Shown piece by piece: positions 120 through 16,075 of a stretch of 32,000 bases of DNA. This stretch comes from Mycoplasma mycoides subsp. capri (GTDB lineage: Bacteria > Bacillota_I > Bacilli_A > Mycoplasmatales > Mycoplasmataceae): NCBI RefSeq assembly GCF_018389705.1, contig NZ_CP065581.1, positions 660,001 through 692,000 of the forward strand, given 5' to 3'. The position numbers and the translations under genes are program-made. Every line of letters starts with the position of its first letter. Positions within the stretch are counted from its first letter, which is position 1. A model generated the notes under the pieces. It had not been told where the DNA came from and did no database searches. It saw nothing but the letters and a program-made list of their open reading frames with translations.

Positions 120-200
120 ATACTTAATATATACTAAGTAAGTATAAAATATTATAAACATATAAACTTTATGCATATTAAATAATTATTTTGATATTAA

Positions 201-229
201 TTGCAATACCAAAATTATTATGATATATT
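201..229 (+). promoter_or_regulatory. Sigma-70-type promoter of cassette 1
   Basis: TTGCAA (201-206), 17-bp spacer, TG (221-222) plus TATATT (224-229). Confidence 0.5.
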
Positions 230-235
230 TAAAGT

Positions 236-353
236 ATAAATATTTTATATTTATACGTTGAGTGGCAGTGAGTTCATCTGGTCATGGCGGACGATTGGTG
301 AAGCCGAAAATAATTGAACTAAAAATAGAACTCCTTTTAGGGGTTCTTTTTTT
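236..353 (+). ncRNA. Candidate small RNA 1 (unknown family)
   Basis: The predicted start is ~7 nt after the -10 element. It has a conserved AU hairpin leader (ATAAATAT-TTT-ATATTTAT). The core 257-306 is 28/50 G+C. The terminator is AGAACTCC/GGGGTTCT plus a T-run ending at 353. No conserved ORF. Confidence 0.45.
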
Positions 354-434
354 ATACTTAATATATACTAAGTAAATATAAAATATAAGAATAATATAAA
401 CTTTATACATATTAAATAGTTTTCTTGCTATTAG

Positions 435-463
435 TTGCAATACCAAAATTATTATGATATAGT
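435..463 (+). promoter_or_regulatory. Sigma-70-type promoter of cassette 2
   Basis: TTGCAA (435-440), 17-bp spacer, TG (455-456) plus TATAGT (458-463). Confidence 0.5.
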
Positions 464-469
464 TAAACT

Positions 470-588
470 ATAAATATTTTATATTTATGATATCGGTGGT
501 TATAGTTCTTCCGGCCATGTCTACCATTTGAGATGACGAAATTGAGAATAGAACTAAGTTAGAACTCTCTTAGAAGAGTTCTTTTTTT
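470..588 (+). ncRNA. Candidate small RNA 2 (same scaffold, unrelated core)
   Basis: Same leader hairpin as cassette 1. Its GC-rich core (TCGGTGGTTATAGTTCTTCCGGCCATGTCTACC...) is different. Terminator AGAACTCT (561-568) / AGAGTTCT (575-582) plus a T-run to 588. Confidence 0.45.
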
Positions 589-667
589 ATACTTAATATA
601 TACTAAGTAAATATAAAATATATTAGAACGTATAAACTTTGTATATGTATTAAGTATTTTTTTATTT

Positions 668-696
668 TTGCAAGTCCAGAATTAATATGATATAGT
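668..696 (+). promoter_or_regulatory. Sigma-70-type promoter of cassette 3
   Basis: TTGCAA (668-673), 17-bp spacer, TG (688-689) plus TATAGT (691-696). Confidence 0.5.
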
Positions 697-702
697 TAAA
701 GT

Positions 703-820
703 ATAAATATTTTATATTTATAAGTTGAGCGGTAGCAAGTTCATCTAAACCGTGACTTCCGGCGGTGAAGTCTAAATAATTTGAACTAAAAATAGAACTC
801 CTTTTGAGAGTTCTTTTTTT
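703..820 (+). ncRNA. Candidate small RNA 3 (core related to RNA 1)
   Basis: Same leader hairpin. The core GTTGAGCGGTAGCAAGTTCATCT...GGTGAAG resembles cassette 1 and differs mostly by transitions. Terminator AGAACTC/GAGTTCT plus a T-run to 820. Confidence 0.45.
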
Positions 821-934: not shown

Positions 935-1462
935 ATGATGAATAAAATTATAAAACAACCAGTTTATAATACTAATCAAACTGAATGCTTAGAAATTGGA
1001 TATGAATGATATGATAATCAAATATCAATTATTCCATTTCCTCATACTATTAAAAAAGTTCCAAGAGTTTTACCAACTCAAATTACTAGTTTAGAAAATG
1101 CCTTTATTTATAATCAAAATGAATTTATTGATGGAATAGAGTACTGAGATACATCAAATATAACTAATATGTATTCTATGTTTTATGAAGCTAATAATTT
1201 TAATCAAAATATTAGCATGTGAGATGTAAGTAATGTTGTTGATATGAGTTATATGTTTTGTTGAGCTTATAAATTTAATCAAGACATTTCAAATTGAAAT
1301 GTAAGTAATGTTAAATATATGAATGATATGTTTTATTGTGCTAATAATTTTAATCAAAATATTTCTAAATGAAATGTAAGTAATGTAAAAAAGGATTATC
1401 AAAATATTGGTAGTGGTGGGTTTAATTGAAAAGATGAGTTTAAACCTAAGTTTAATAAATAG
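935..1462 (+). CDS. DUF285-type repeat protein (BspA-like leucine-rich repeats), 175 aa, no signal peptide
   Basis: ATG at 935, TAG at 1460-1462, frame verified open with TGA = Trp. Repeated motif W(D/N)VSNV..M..MF..A..FNQ(N/D)IS is typical of the Mycoplasma DUF285 family. Confidence 0.8.
1145..1393 (+). repeat. In-frame 75-bp (25-aa) tandem coding repeats inside the DUF285 gene
   Basis: Repeat units begin at 1145, 1220, 1295 and 1370 (the last is partial). Each opens with a TGA-encoded Trp. Confidence 0.8.
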
Positions 1463-3141: not shown

Positions 3142-4599
3142 CTAAGCTAATAAATATTCTTTATCTTTAAAACTACCAGTAGTAATTAATTTATTCTTTT
3201 TAACTAGTTGATTTAATATTTCTCTACTTCTAGTTGGTGATACATTTAATAGTTTATCAATATCAATTCTTTTAAATTTAGTGTGGTTTTTAGCAAATTC
3301 TAAAACAATTTCTATTTGTTCAGTTGTAGTAGAACGAGACTTGTTTTTATCTGTATCAGTGTCTTGTATAATATCTTGTCTTATATTAGAGTGAATTTTA
3401 GTATTAACTTTATTTAAATATTCACTAACACTAATATTTGATGATTGATCTTGCTCATAATTTAAATTTTTTAAAATAACAATAAATGATTTATCATCAG
3501 ATATAAATTCTGGAGTATGTTTTAAACTGTAATTTTCTTGTATTGCATAAATATTTAAAATTTCTTTAATACCACTACCTCTTCTTTCCATTAGTTTTAA
3601 CATAGAAAAAATGTTTGCTAAAATTGGATTTCTTCTTTTAGATTCGATTCTATAAGGGTCTAATTCTTGTATTTTACTTTTATCAACCATTCCACCAGGT
3701 GAAATTATTTCTAATCTATCAGTATAAATATTAATATTAATTTGATCATAAAACTTAGTGTAATCTCTATGAACTAAAGCATTGACTAAAGCTTCTCTAA
3801 TAGCTAATTTTGGATAATCAGGATATTCTATACGTTTAGTATCTGTTTTTTTAAAGTCTACATTAGATTTGTTTTCTATAAATTGTTGACTATTTTTTAG
3901 TATTTCTAATAAATTTCCATCAAAATTTTCAATACTTTTACCACTTTTTTTATTTGATTTTTCAAAATCGTTTCAATATGTTGCAAAGACTAAAGAATGT
4001 TTAATAAATTTTTGATCTGCTAATAATGCACCTGCATTTGTAAGTACATTATTTTTAGCTAATTCTAGTGAAACTAAATCATTATAATCTTCTATAATTC
4101 TTATACCAAGTTCTTTAAAATAGCTATTAAGTAAATTAAAAGTTGCACTATTTCATGGTATATCTGTTTGTAATGAATCATATGAAAGGTTTTTTCCACT
4201 TAACCCTAAACTAAATATCTCTTCTCTTGAAGCAATATGAGTTTGATCACCATATCTTACATATGCAGTTAAAGTTCCTTGATCAAATAAATAATAAGGC
4301 GTATTATCACCTTTTTCAACTTCTATAATAATTATTGTTTTTTTATTAATAACTTCTGATTTTATGCTAAATTTTGGAATAGGATTTATTTTATCTTTTA
4401 TAAAACTTGATAATTTATTTATTTTATTTTTGACATTATCAATACCAATAATTTGACCATTATCATTAACACCTATATAAATAGAACCATTATTTGTATT
4501 TGCAAAAGCACAGATTGTTTTTAAAATGTTTTTAGGTTTGTTTTCATCAAATAATTCTTTGTTTTCATGTGTTGATGATTCAATAGGTACTTTAAACAT
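3142..4599 (-). CDS. AlbA_2 (Schlafen-like) + HATPase_c_4 + C-terminal winged-helix protein, a putative transcriptional regulator of the 'RecG-like C-terminal' family, 485 aa
   Basis: Track ORFs 4153-4599 and 3142-3690 share a frame, and the gap has only TGA codons. Motifs: N-terminal ICAFANTNNGSIYIGVNDNG (AlbA_2-like), REALVNALVHRDY...ISPGG (HATPase_c_4-like), C-terminal HTH-like segment. AGGAGA RBS lies 7 nt upstream of the ATG. Confidence 0.75.
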
Positions 4600-4644
4600 T
4601 ATATATTCTCCTATATTTTATAGAGCAATTCGATATATTAATTA

Positions 4645-4820
4645 TACCAACACTTATAAAAAATATAAACACTTTTACCAACACTTATTCTGAAATACAA
4701 ACACTTATTAAAAAATGAATGAAAATACAAAAACTTATTAAGAAATACCAACACTTATACTAACACTTCTTGTGAAATACCAACACTTATAGGCAAATAG
4801 ACTAAAATACAAACACTTTT
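4645..4820. promoter_or_regulatory. Array of nine TAC(C/A)AACACTTAT boxes overlapping and upstream of the promoter of the 3142-4599 gene
   Basis: AACACTT cores start at 4649, 4668, 4680, 4700, 4730 (one mismatch), 4750, 4762, 4782 and 4812. On the minus strand an extended -10, TGGTATAAT (4641-4649), overlaps box 1. Confidence 0.6.
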
Positions 4821-6304: not shown

Positions 6305-9300
6305 TTAATCTATATTAACTTCTATAATTTCTGAAGCTAAAGCATTTTTTAATGGTTTAACTCTGATTTGATAAGTTCCTGAAGCTAAACCTTGAACTTT
6401 ATTTTTAGTTATATCAGTTCAACTACCATTGTTTTTTAATTTATATTGCATTTTATCATTTACACCAGTTAGTGTTTTATTAATTGATTTAATATTGTTA
6501 TTAGTTGGTATTTCTGATCTAATTAAATCAATTTTTTGACTATCTGAACTTAGTTTTTCATCTGATCCTTTATATCTTAAATAAAGAGTTCCAATAGTTG
6601 CACTAGGTATTATAAAGTCAGTTGGAACATCTTTTCAACTAGTGTTATTAAAGTTATATTCTAAATTGTTTAAATTATTAGTAATTTTAATAGAATCATT
6701 ATCTAATATTAAAATTTCAGCATTAGGTTTATTTTGTCTTTGAACGTTAATATTAACTGAAGTATTACCATTTAAATTAAATTTATAATCTTTTTTCTTA
6801 ATTAATTCTAATTGAATATTAACATCATCATAAGAATTAAAATGACCTAAAGTTAAAATATAAGAATTACCTTCTTGTTTTACATCTTTTATAAGAGCAT
6901 TTTTAATACTAAAGTTTCCTGCTTTTAAATCATTAACTTTTTGATCTAATTCAACTTTAATTGCATATTTATTATTATACTGTTGAACACTTTTAACATT
7001 TACATTAGTTAAACTGGTTTTTGTTTGAGTTTCAAAATTATAACTAATAGCTTTATTAGGTCCAATTATTGAAGTAACCTTAAACCCTTTTTCTTTAACA
7101 TCTAATCCTCTTTTATTAAATGCACTATTAACAACTTTGAAGTTTTTAGAATTAGTTATTAAATCTAAATTAGTTATTTGCTGAGTTTCTGTATTTCAAT
7201 TATTATCAATTAAAGCTAAAACATCATCTTCTGTAGTTACAAAGTTTTTAAATTTTAAGTTTCTATAACGTTTACCTTGATTATCAAATTCTTTATTAAA
7301 TTTATCAGAGGTTGTAAAATCGTCATTTGTATTTAAAAAGAAATTAAAGCTAGTGTAAGTATCTGTTCTATCTGAAGTAGCATCAATATGATATCATTCA
7401 TTATCTAATTGAACTAAGTTTCAAGCGTGTTTAGTACTTCTAGTTTCTCTACTACTTTCACCTTCCATAAATCTACATGGAATATCAAGTTCATCTAAGA
7501 TTAATTTTAATCCTTTAGCATAACCAGTACATACTGTATATTTTTTAACTAAAGCTGAATGAGCGTTTTGATTTTTTAACATTGGTCCATCTGTTAAATT
7601 AAAGTCATATTTAACTTCTTTAGTCATTCACTCATAAGCTTTTATAAGTCTTTCTAAAGGTGGTAGTTCATTTCATTTTTTTTCAACAACCAAATCTTTA
7701 GCTGCTTTTTTAGCTAACTCTTCATTATTTGCTAATTCACTTGTGTACTCTGAAAATACTTTAACAACAGCTGAAAATAAATAGCCTTTATAACTTGCTC
7801 ATATTCTAGCTGATTTTTCATCTGGATGATTACCATATGTATCTTTAGTATCTTTTCATTTTAAAGTTCCATCACTTGTTAATGTAAAAGTTACATCTTT
7901 TTGATCGTCATTTGAAGTTATAATTTCATCCTTTGGATAAGAAGTTCTTTGATATCATTTAATTTCATTTCTTGAAATTGGTTTTGAAGTACTTTTATCA
8001 ATAAGCTCTAATTTTACTTCATTATTTGTAAACTTATCTAGTACGATTAGTTCTTTATCAAGTTCAAATCTAGGATGAGAATAGAAATTTGGAGCAACAT
8101 CATTATTTAGCATCATTTCTTTTGCTTTATTTTCATCTAAATCAATTTTATTAAAAGCTTTAAGTGTGCGATCTATATATGTATTGTTAACATCACTAAG
8201 ATTTGCAGATGAACTAATAGTAATGCTTTCAAATGTTTCTGGTTCATATTTAATTGGTTGTGATTTAGGAATTGATGGTTGTGATACACTTGAAGAACTT
8301 ATCGGAGTAGCTGGAGTTAAAGTTATTAAAGGACTAACTTTTTTTTCTTCTGTTAATGGTGTTAAAGCAACATTATTTTTAATTACTTTTTCTTTTTTAA
8401 CAATAGGTTCTTCTTTAATTTCACGTTTTTTTCTTGGTTGTTGTTTAGTTGAACTAGTTGGTTCTAATTTAAATGCAGAAATTAGTTCAGATTCATTTGA
8501 ATTATTTTGTTTAGATTCATCTCTTTTATCAAGAACAGTATTTACAGTTGAACTAGTTGGTTTTGTTATAATAGCTTCAGCTTTTGGTTCTATATTTGGT
8601 TTTTTATCATCAATTGGTTTAATTGAAAGTCCGGGTATAATATCTGATTCATTGTTTAATTGTTCATTAATAGGTTCTTTAATTTCAAAATTAATTTCTA
8701 TTGTTCCAAAATATTTCTTTGAATCTTTGACTTTAATAATTAAAGTAGAACCTTCTTTTTTTATAATTTCAAAATTATTAATAGTTAAATCTTTTAAAAC
8801 AGTTTGATTAACTTTTAAAAACTCGTTTAAAATAGTTGTATTATTAGAATTATTTAAATTTGTTAAATTAGTAATTAAATTTAATGAGTTAATATTAATT
8901 AAAGCAGGAGTTAAATTAGTTCAATTAATAGTATTAGTTATTGTATTTAAATTAGTTTCATTAATTTTATTTTCTTTAGCTTCAAATTTAATATTAGTAT
9001 TACCTATAAATTGGTTTGAATTTTTAATATTAATAATAGCATTAGAATCATTAATCATTTTTACTTCTAATTGGTTTTCATTTAAATTAGATAGTTTGTG
9101 ATTGTTTATATCTAAAAAAGTTTTAATAATAGTTTTTGGAGTGTTATCTTTTATATCATACAAATTAGTATTTAAATCTAATTTACTAATATTTATTTGT
9201 TTATTATGTAAAGTGGTTGTTTTATCATTACTACAAGAAACTACAACAATACTACTAGTTAAAGCAGTTAAACAAGTTAAAATGGATATTAATTTAGTTT

Positions 9301-9396: not shown

Positions 9397-10941
9397 TTAA
9401 AAATTAAAAGTTAGATTCTTATATTGAGATTTTAATTTATTAAAATCTTTAGTACTTTTAATAAAGATTTCTGTATTATAAATTTGACGTTTTTGTATTG
9501 AGTCTCACATTGATTTATCTAAATAGTTATCTTGTAAAAACAAATAATAAGTAATTGTGTTTTTTGTTCCAATTCTATGATTTCTTTTTAAAGCTTGAAT
9601 ATGATAACCATAAGTTGCTAAAGAAAATAAAATAGTCTTATCATATTCTTGTCAATTATTTCCTGTACTTGCTGAAAAATAATTTGCAATAATCACACGT
9701 TTTTTACTACTATTTTTATTATTTTGATCTAAATTTAAAAATTCTAAATAATTAGTAATATTTTTTTTATTACCATTTCAAATATCAATTTTATAATCTA
9801 GTTTTTTACAAATTTTATAAATTTCATCAAACTCAGGATCATAGTTATAAAAAATAATATAGTTATCAATCTTATCAGTTAAGAGTTGTTCTAATTTATT
9901 TAATCTTGAATAATCAAATCAATAATAATCTTTACTATTTCCTTGAAATCCAATTGAAATTTGTCTAGTTCTTAATCAAAAAGTAGCATCATCACCAGCT
10001 ATTCATTTATCATCAGGATAACTTAAATTTTTATAATATGGGTTTTTAATAAGATTTAATTGATTTGGTTTGTAATTTGATTTAATGTTATTTTTATTAC
10101 AAAAATTTAATAAATCATATTCTGTTACTTTTTTATTTGTAAATAGTTCAAATTCACTACTAATTGGTAATTTAATACCAATGAATTGTTGTTTTGGTAA
10201 ATAAATAGGTGGGATATTTTTACTAGTTAAAGCAAATTGATTAATTAATTGTTCTAATTGTTTTATATTTTTATATCCATTAATTTTATAAACTCTTCTA
10301 TAAGCATTATTAAATTGGGTTTTAATACAAAACTGATCTTCAAACTGATATCTAGTCATTTTTAAACCTAAAAATCTTAATTGATTAAACATATCAATAG
10401 CCCCAGTTGTTTGAGGAGTGCCACTTAATAAGTATAAATAAGTTTTAAAAGCTAGTTTTTTAACTAAATCAACAAAGTTTTTAATACTAATGGAAATTAA
10501 AGCTCTTGAGTTTTTAATATTTTGACTTTCATCAATAATAATTGCGATTTTTTGATTTTTATGTACACTAATAAATTTAGCTAAATAATTAAAAAAGTTT
10601 TCTTTATTAATATTTAATAAAAATGAATGATAATTAATAATAATTGCTTCTTTTTGATTGTTTCTAAAATCAGCATTTTTTAAATCAGTTTTTAAATAAA
10701 CTTTGAAATTTAAATCATTTTGTAGATAATTTGTAAAACTAGCATTTTGTTCAACAGTTTCTAAAGTTTTACTTCTACTAGCAATTACAATAATTGCATC
10801 AACTTGATTAATTTCACAAAAACCTAAACTTAAAATTGTTTTTCCACTACCCATATCTAAAAACAATCCTAATTGATTTTTATGCTTATTTTTAATAATT
10901 AATTCTTTTTGTCAGTCAAATAATTGATCAATAATTGCCAT
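9397..10941 (-). CDS. SNF2/DEAD-like superfamily 2 helicase, 514 aa
   Basis: MAIIDQLFDW... Walker A LDMGSGKT, motif II IIIDESQNIKN, C-terminal helicase-like region. Frame verified open from 10941 to TAA at 9397-9399 with TGA = Trp. Confidence 0.8.
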
Positions 10942-15686: not shown

Positions 15687-15831
15687 AATATTCTCTTTAT
15701 ATTTATAATCATAAAAAAAGTAATTAATAAATTCTATTAAAGTCTTAAATAAAGATAATAATTTTTAATTAAATTATATTTATAGTTTTAGATTCTATTG
15801 TTTTTTTTATTATAAAGTGTAATATTAATTC

Positions 15832-15937
15832 AAATCCTGATTGTGATCAGTTGACAACATCTTGAGTCTAACCGTATGTTAAGTACGGAGCCCACCAGGT
15901 AAAAAGCACCGTGACGTGATACAGGTGCTTTTTTTTA
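15832..15937 (+). ncRNA. Candidate structured small RNA of unknown family (strand assignment tentative)
   Basis: 44/93 G+C over 15836-15928, in AT-rich intergenic DNA. Hairpins at 15837-15850 and 15872-15888. Terminator stem AAGCACC (15904-15910) / GGTGCTT (15924-15930) with T8 (15929-15936). Promoter-like TTGTTT (15798-15803), 16-bp spacer, TAATAT (15820-15825). Confidence 0.4.
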
Positions 15938-16075
15938 TTTAATTTAAAATAATATGAAAAAAAATTATATTTATGATTTTTAATACAAAAAATACTAATT
16001 AATAACTTTTTTATAATATAACTACATATTTTATAGCATTGATAACTATACAAATTATTATTTAAATTAATTACT

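Follow-up and report, generated by a model that had tools for sequence, protein, structure and literature searches.

What do the three similar cassettes encode that stand one behind the other at the start of a 32,000-nt stretch of Mycoplasma mycoides subsp. capri DNA (contig NZ_CP065581.1; the whole stretch is called the window here)? The original prediction had read them as promoter-to-terminator genes for non-coding small RNAs (sRNAs) belonging to no Rfam family. We find that they are almost certainly three paralogous genes of one family, Mycoplasma sRNA MCS4 (Rfam RF02713), and that they represent its core types B, A and D. The strain-specific array is new; the RNA family was already known.

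When the units were compared with Rfam 15 using cmscan, all three aligned over the full length of the 123-position RF02713 model (positions 1-123), which overturns the statement that they belong to no Rfam family. Unit 1 (58.6 bits) and unit 2 (58.3 bits) exceed the gathering score of 56 bits, and unit 3 is sub-threshold with 42.7 bits (E 1.6e-4 within 1 kb). RF02713 was created by Rfam from a described RNA (PMC5753348). We also built a covariance model of our own, called R1, from seven copies; within the window its sense-strand hits are limited to the three units, and unit 3 receives a score of 106.5 bits. Unit 3 is counted as MCS4 because of this homology to the other copies. In addition, the units keep the element order of MCS4, namely a 5' hairpin, nested core helices and a 3' terminator hairpin. 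No tRNA was detected by ARAGORN and every other Rfam match in 1-1000 has an E value of at least 1.3, so that a tRNA, an rRNA or another Rfam family is ruled out by these searches.

The units form a single tandem array at 113-890 (Tandem Repeats Finder; period 234, 3.3 copies, 77% matches, score 755), in which they follow each other head-to-tail every ~234 bp with a landmark spacing of 233-235 bp; coordinates are window positions, and all parts of the array lie on the (+) strand. Each complete unit has an AT-rich spacer (120-200, 355-434 and 590-667) followed by a near-consensus extended -10 promoter, and then a 5' AU hairpin, a core rich in G+C and an intrinsic terminator. The promoter scan returned TTGCAA, 17 nt, an upstream TG and then TATATT at 201-229 or TATAGT at 435-463 and 668-696, so that TTGCAA starts at 201, 435 and 668, in register across the units. 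The leader TATAAATATTTTATATTTAT begins at 235, 469 and 702, and the unit terminators end at 343, 578 and 810. The MCS4 genes themselves extend over 235-354 (gene 1, type B, with the AU hairpin at 235-255, the core and the terminator at 327-354), 469-589 (gene 2, type A, terminator at 561-589) and 702-821 (gene 3, type D, terminator at 794-821).

Taken as a class, promoter-like sites are no more frequent in this AT-rich DNA than expected (16 found versus 17 expected); the three promoters are credible because they recur exactly in register, and not because of the number of sites. Terminator-like sites, on the other hand, are far in excess of expectation (6 found versus 0.1 expected), and those of the array, at 327-347, 561-582 and 794-814, each have a T7 tract after the hairpin. 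With its strong extended -10 promoter and its intrinsic terminator, each cassette is thus predicted to be a transcription unit of its own, starting near 235, 469 or 702 and yielding one non-coding RNA of ~120 nt. The recurrence of the landmarks in register bears out the earlier proposal of three such sRNA genes, on the basis of predictions from sequence.

Composition and conservation along the unit also agree with what had been noted before. The G+C content of the window is 22.3%, and only four places in the 32 kb have 25 or more G+C within 50 nt; the count of 28/50 G+C reported for 257-306 is correct. Identity between units is lowest in the core (59-68%) and higher in the terminator (78-91%), the spacer (79-85%) and the promoter with leader (89-95%); hence the flanks are indeed conserved and the cores diverged, cores 1 and 3 being the closer pair, as proposed. 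The spacer alone has a fourth copy, at 822-934.

A coding reading was rejected, given that no frame is conserved and that TAG is the third codon in two cassettes. The absence of a conserved open reading frame (ORF) had been recognised, with one detail that needs amending: in the frame that starts at the ATG inside the -10 box, the early TAG had been ascribed to cassette 2 only and is found in cassettes 2 and 3 alike. Throughout the window TGA is a sense codon (0-13 TGA per ORF versus a single TGG in all 21 ORFs); the sole TGA-free protein is an 81-aa UPF0154 member, identical in several complete genomes including FQ377874 (M. mycoides subsp. capri 95010).

Are the cores exchanged modules, as their divergence had suggested? 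R1 finds many further copies in six related loci, and these fall into the recurrent types A, B, C (with variants) and D. Type A, the commonest, corresponds to unit 2, type B to unit 1 and type D to unit 3, and every unit of the window has a counterpart elsewhere with no more than one nucleotide changed within the shared core. Near-identical copies of unit 1 are located at L127:8096 (strain 95010) and L001:18915; unit 2 has copies in L001, L002/L127, L004 and the integrative and conjugative element (ICE) L133, with scores of 67-74 bits; and the counterpart of unit 3, L001:20174, is cut by the end of the locus and shows a 1-nt difference over the shared core. Type D also has a decayed copy, at L005:5318. 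The cores are old paralogue types (B, A, D) and not swapped modules. In particular, core 2, which had been taken as unrelated to the others, is the commonest MCS4 type in the relatives, fits the same covariance model and attains the same two helices through compensatory changes.

All types share a common fold, in which an outer helix (A/G)GUUC...GAAC(U/C) encloses an inner helix of 3-4 bp, whose middle pair reads G-C (types B and C), U-A (type A) or A-U (type D). In 22 copies aligned to the model, 92% of the cells are paired, versus 32-47% when the partners are slid, and one inner-helix pair is GC in 9 copies, UA in 7 and AU in 3. A MAFFT alignment of 13 diverse cores, which includes the M. 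bovis and M. yeatsii-like members and was not fitted to any model, likewise has 92% of its cells paired (versus 16-44% slid); five of its nine pairs change on both sides, and its covariation score is 0.40 versus 0.19 +/- 0.04, a value reached by none of 500 shuffles. M. bovis and the M. yeatsii-like contig retain a 5' hairpin built from unrelated sequences. Folding of the single sequences is only modestly better than that of shuffles (z -2.6, -0.9 and -3.1).

In the core at 256-320 and its homologues (alignment columns 21-25 with 47-51), the GUUC/GAAC helix and a UUCAY/GUGAA helix compete for the same UUC. The latter is the TTCATC/GGTGAA pairing of the original prediction, which is backed by one covarying pair (AU in 8 copies, UA in 4; 83% paired) and is mutually exclusive with the better-supported outer helix. 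Each of the two has at least one covarying pair; they may represent alternative conformers of the core.

The distribution of the changes bears directly on the possibility that MCS4 is a trans-acting antisense or targeting RNA family, with a fixed 5' handle and terminator around an exchangeable recognition segment for different mRNAs. Such a family would account for cores that differ within conserved scaffolds. However, the core differences are concentrated in the helices and are compensatory, so that the variation of the supposed targeting segment lies largely in paired positions, and the conserved positions, including the motifs CUGG, GUGAAG and GAAAUAAAU, are unpaired, which is the opposite of a variable single-stranded seed. 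The conserved unpaired motifs together with the compensatory helices are what one expects of a folded RNA whose shape and sequence are both recognised, and not of one with a free variable seed.

Complementarity was evaluated as well. The type A core of strain 95010 can pair with the 5' untranslated region and start codon of the adjacent gene for a 248-aa paralogue of the Mbov_0400 family (see below), with a duplex energy of -36.8 kcal/mol versus -20.5 +/- 3.5 for shuffled sequences, the best of the 3786 windows of that locus. Yet this site barely beats unrelated sites (-35.7 versus -34.9, a difference of 0.8 kcal/mol) and was one of 7 pairs tested, so it counts as a weak lead. For types C, B and D nothing comparable was seen (z -1.4 to +0.3), and the window units showed no pairing with the 5' region of the downstream DUF285 gene (z ~0). 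Nor did blastn of the array against phage and plasmid collections return a match; an origin from such elements was discarded, and this result too speaks against an antisense family. Altogether, we consider antisense targeting a distinctly improbable function.

Most likely, the pattern of a conserved scaffold with different cores has another source. Unequal recombination between homogenised scaffolds (spacer, promoter, leader and terminator) would change the copy number and the order of the units, the core types would persist, and this would leave the pattern observed. In the same vein, MCS4 would act as a folded, probably protein-binding RNA and not as an antisense guide. A comparison with the Listeria LhrC1-4 and Pseudomonas PrrF1/2 paralogues is instructive here: they are alike in that sRNA genes with their own promoter and terminator arose by duplication and lie head-to-tail, whereas the LhrC and PrrF RNAs have a conserved single-stranded seed and work by base pairing, and MCS4 has conserved unpaired motifs, covarying helices and no evident targets.

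If MCS4 binds a protein, which protein could it be? An indication comes from the genomic surroundings of the copies, which were collected from loci reached through neighbouring proteins. A wider pattern scan of genomes (TATAARTAT..ATATTTAT..GTTC) was abandoned as too loose, as it gave chance matches in unrelated AT-rich genomes. In the relatives, single, paired or triple MCS4 genes alternate with protein genes that are mutually paralogous and match NCBIfam NF045891, 'Mbov_0400 family ICE element protein' (E 1e-34 and 8e-31). In strain 95010 three pairs of MCS4 genes follow one another, the first pair succeeded by a 245-aa gene, the second by a 248-aa gene and the third by a DUF285 gene, and the number and order of MCS4 genes differ among other strains. 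The order in the window is the end of a 245-aa-type gene, then types B, A and D, then DUF285; the comparison with 95010 implies that one protein gene is missing in the window. Further upstream in 95010, at 3642-3785 of the locus, lies a type C copy that runs into the end of an IS3-family element where its terminator would be, switching to CCCCCCGCTACC...; this copy was thus truncated by the insertion.

The same neighbourhood is found in ICEs proper. L133 is a bona fide M. mycoides ICE that encodes a TraG-like ATPase, Mbov_0398, a 1663-aa protein, ParA and the transposase-like Mbov_0401, and it carries MCS4 copies at 8369, 8602 and 9842, directly upstream of its two Mbov_0400 paralogues. M. feriruminatoris has one MCS4 copy upstream of an Mbov_0400 orthologue, and in the M. 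yeatsii-like contig L137 a divergent copy lies 38 nt upstream of an Mbov_0400 homologue. Moreover, in the ICE of M. bovis, a species phylogenetically distant from the mycoides cluster, the RNA is encoded between CDS19 and Mbov_0400 and scores 59.3 bits, above the RF02713 gathering score. MCS4 is thus very probably linked to ICEs, and the array, judged by gene order, appears to be one node of a larger ICE-derived cluster in which MCS4 alternates with Mbov_0400-family genes. The accessible papers searched for it, on mycoplasma ICEs and on M. mycoides toxin-antitoxin systems, do not mention an ICE-borne RNA, and those searched for MCS4 give no ICE or Mbov_0400 context.

Several further observations were made at the M. 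bovis and M. agalactiae loci. In the M. bovis ICE (L132, CP061873) a short ORF at 9730-9835, with the translation MSKLLIGRVYKQRNKENKLPIAKDRNKVYILITN followed by a stop, lies between two RNA units and is an N-terminal fragment of an Mbov_0400-like protein; it indicates that a module of RNA and gene was duplicated and that one gene copy decayed. Directly upstream of Mbov_0400 there is a second RNA type, both in M. bovis (L132, 9866-9990) and in M. agalactiae (L136, 5866-5980). Its extended -10 promoter, 5' hairpin and terminator are accompanied by a GUUUC/GAAAC helix and by a GGUGG/CCACC or GGUAG/CUACC helix that changes in a compensatory way from one species to the other. This type has the same architecture as MCS4 and is not detected by R1, nor by Rfam in L132, the one locus searched. 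The M. agalactiae PG2 locus gave no R1 match, and its RNA, which combines promoter, 5' hairpin, GC-rich core, terminator, TATAAT and gene, is not counted as MCS4.

Within the mycoides cluster the distance between RNA and protein gene is nearly constant. In nine of the ten copies listed, at 8 distinct sites, the gene-proximal RNA ends 37-41 nt before the Mbov_0400 ATG, and the tenth, in L006, lies 50 nt from the first ATG; the distance from the RNA end to the DUF285 gene is 112-113 nt. A conserved TATAAT box is found 3' of most terminators and is absent in L137. This layout of promoter, structured domain, terminator and a gene 37-41 nt downstream is also that of a cis-acting leader or riboswitch-like attenuator, in which the core, on sensing a ligand or protein, would govern read-through past the terminator into the downstream gene, the ~120-nt RNA being a terminated by-product. 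The two mutually exclusive, covarying helices that share the core UUC could be the switch, and the lack of TATAAT after the L137 terminator is in line with this possibility. On the other hand, within doublets and triplets every unit comes with a promoter and a full terminator of its own, the terminators are strong, with stems of 7-9 bp before T7, and most are followed by the conserved TATAAT. The GAACU repeat of a candidate anti-terminator (AGUUC-GAACU) is present in the mycoides type and not in the M. bovis copy, and the downstream gene varies among copies, being Mbov_0400, DUF285 or dinB-like. A cis-acting role is for these reasons very unlikely.

The reading that we prefer is that MCS4 forms, with a protein, an accessory RNA-protein module of the ICE, the likeliest partner being the Mbov_0400-family protein encoded by the ICE-linked gene. 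As a whole, the explanation by ICE-linked, protein-partnered MCS4 paralogues is the best we have and seems reasonably probable; its mechanistic part, the protein partner, which draws on gene order and structure models, is tentative and for now a possibility short of a probability. Some points weigh against it. Given the sampling through neighbouring proteins, the association of MCS4 with Mbov_0400 may be overestimated. The TATAAT after the terminator means that the protein gene may have its own promoter, in which case adjacency need not imply co-regulation. The array in the window precedes a DUF285 gene and not an Mbov_0400 gene, and one MCS4-like copy in L137 precedes dinB-like fragments, so that the linkage to Mbov_0400 is frequent and not obligatory. 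Finally, the step to a protein partner rests on synteny and on a fold match that is not significant.

This fold match concerns a more specific possibility, in which the Mbov_0400 protein is a distant endoribonuclease of the ToxN/AbiQ type and MCS4, produced in excess from its own promoter, binds and neutralises it, as in type III toxin-antitoxin systems. On the side of such a module are the same-strand order of RNA gene, terminator and protein gene with fixed spacing in the relatives, and a ToxN/MazF-like motif, RPyvvFYSDDkVYYL..., which was spotted by eye ahead of any fold search. The AlphaFold 2 (AF2) model of the full-length protein has a predicted local distance difference test score (pLDDT) of 79 and an extra helical C-terminal half; Foldseek gave ToxN (4ato) and AbiQ (4glk) the two highest probabilities, 0.23 each. 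The model of the N-domain, built from 31 sequences, reaches a pLDDT of 93.2 and a predicted template modelling (TM) score of 0.88. Its top match in the Protein Data Bank (PDB) is AbiQ 4glk, not significant, with a Foldseek probability of 0.85, E 0.14 and TM scores of 0.40/0.38 over 110 columns, and every other listed match has a probability of at most 0.15. In addition, hhalign sets RPyVVFySndKVYYLsvKT opposite KPFVGIiv..YfIPLTSaK of ToxN (probability 0.75%), where the segment PLTSaK holds the invariant Ser and Lys of the ToxN family, which we take to be catalytic.

The same comparisons also tell against a ToxN/AbiQ relationship. No match is significant, either by Foldseek E value or by hhalign probability; ToxN structures are not among the top 50 matches of the N-domain model; the extra C-terminal half argues against a ToxN/AbiQ identity; and sequence and profile searches of the Mbov_0400 family against Pfam, PADLOC and the PDB gave no match to ToxN, MazF or a defence family. 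A search of 1.84 billion representative sequences returned only 36 relatives, presumably members of the family. Moreover, MCS4 also occurs without a downstream Mbov_0400 gene, for example in the window. In favour of the module, on the other hand, insertions in ICEA that hit the non-coding stretch behind CDS19 and the gene following it did not abolish transfer (PMC6030558). This phenotype fits an accessory module, if the positions are equivalent; the equivalence of Mbov_0400 with CDSE of ICEA could not be established from that source.

The architecture can be set beside that of known systems. As with ToxI/ToxN and antiQ/AbiQ, the order on a single strand of a mobile element is RNA gene, intrinsic terminator, protein gene, and the RNA is tandem, although the terminator between RNA and protein gene is seen in the relatives and not in the window, where DUF285 is downstream. 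Type III antitoxins are 34-42-nt repeats cut from one transcript, whereas MCS4 units measure 234 bp and have their own promoter and terminator, unlike the textbook ToxIN arrangement in L137. The latter, at 10200-10916 of JAFJYK010000014.1, is a type III locus with ~2.8 direct repeats of 42 nt (AAGAAGGTGTCCCACTACCTATATCCCAAAGGTGGCCGATTG), a terminator and a ToxN gene, whose product (PF13958) shares 87% identity with M. yeatsii MYEA_0800; the Mbov_0400 homologue is 2 kb away from this locus.

On balance a type III-like function of MCS4 and Mbov_0400 is unlikely. The functions that would follow from it, stabilisation of the ICE or a part in phage or element exclusion, and the view of the window triplet as antitoxin genes left over, spare or orphaned, when one toxin gene was lost, stand or fall with it. 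It is similarly doubtful that the pair constitutes a new, structurally distinct type III branch, with a 120-nt RNA from its own promoter in place of processed short repeats. If this were true, the orphan MCS4 would be the RNA half of an unrecognised mycoplasma ICE module and the triplet in the window a bank of antitoxin paralogues.

What, then, is to be made of the earlier descriptions of this RNA? MCS4 was reportedly described by Ushida and Muto in 1993 as an abundant RNA of ~125 nt in M. capricolum, with a resemblance to U6 small nuclear RNA (snRNA), and to our knowledge it has had no assigned function since. The window units align end-to-end with the MCS4 model; what differs is that three diverged paralogue types lie side by side here, with type D sub-threshold. 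The likeness to eukaryotic U6, reportedly put forward in the original literature, is confined to a short core resemblance, the MCS4 gene is bacterial and ICE-linked, and U6 gave no Rfam match at E up to 10 in cmscan of 1-1000; in our view the resemblance is coincidental.

The flanks of the array complete the picture of the locus. Upstream, an Mbov_0400-family ICE-element gene reaches into the window with its 3' end at 3-92, closing with a stop codon at 90-92; the gene lies outside the array coordinates and has only its last 90 nt in the window, the remainder being upstream. Its translation with table 4, ending in NELEYVYNSFEIDDKWEEYQKSNSNKHKM and a stop, matches the C-terminus of the 245-aa genes in L127 and L001 (NF045891). 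It is followed at 95-119 by a terminator read from the sequence, AAGACTAT-AAT-ATAGTCTT and then T8; the first repeat unit begins within this T-run, and the junction is identical in the ICE locus L133. Downstream, the fourth spacer copy, identified by unit alignment, has neither an MCS4 promoter nor an RNA, forms the 5' flank of the DUF285 gene and runs into it; a matching segment of 112-113 nt precedes the DUF285 gene in L127, L001, L004 and L006. The gene itself, at 935-1462 (+), encodes a DUF285/PARCEL surface protein with TGA read as Trp (NCBIfam PARCEL repeat), 98% identical to its counterpart in M. mycoides subsp. capri 95010. Its three 75-bp tandem repeats at 1167-1390 are the 25-aa PARCEL repeats of the protein and no separate element. 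The DUF285 gene is a neighbour of the array, and a part in the RNA system is not indicated.

Elsewhere in the window, a GC-rich intergenic stretch at 15810-15942 (+), AAAAAGCACC...GGTGCTTTTTTTT, ends in a terminator and weakly matches the DUF3800-I RNA motif RF02969 (26.6 bits versus a gathering score of 44.2; local E 0.048). Strain L003 has a DUF3800 gene at the equivalent intergenic position, which the window does not have, and the stretch is possibly an orphaned sRNA or motif. At 4644-4818, upstream of an SLFN/AlbA_2-HATPase gene (3142-4599, minus strand), ~2.1 copies of an intergenic 82-bp repeat built from ATAC(A/C)AACACTT could be operator-like. The L137 contig of 58 kb comes from an assembly labelled Vibrio harveyi (GCA_019846575.1); it is Mollicute DNA with TGA-fragmented genes and closest proteins in M. 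yeatsii and M. mycoides, and is probably a contaminant of that assembly. Lastly, a very highly expressed, unannotated and apparently non-coding transcript downstream of MMSYN1_0884 has been described in JCVI-syn1.0 and is kept in syn3A, its identity not being determined by the authors (bioRxiv 10.1101/2025.10.23.681674); it may be an MCS4 copy or another sRNA.

For the family, the findings mean that MCS4 is to be seen as a multicopy, multi-type RNA of ICEs and their remnants, with a fixed spacing to one ICE gene family and members in distant mycoplasma lineages. This is of relevance for annotating ICE borders and for the engineering of chassis strains derived from M. mycoides. Above all, an old orphan RNA gains a concrete question, namely whether MCS4 binds, or even neutralises, the Mbov_0400 protein.

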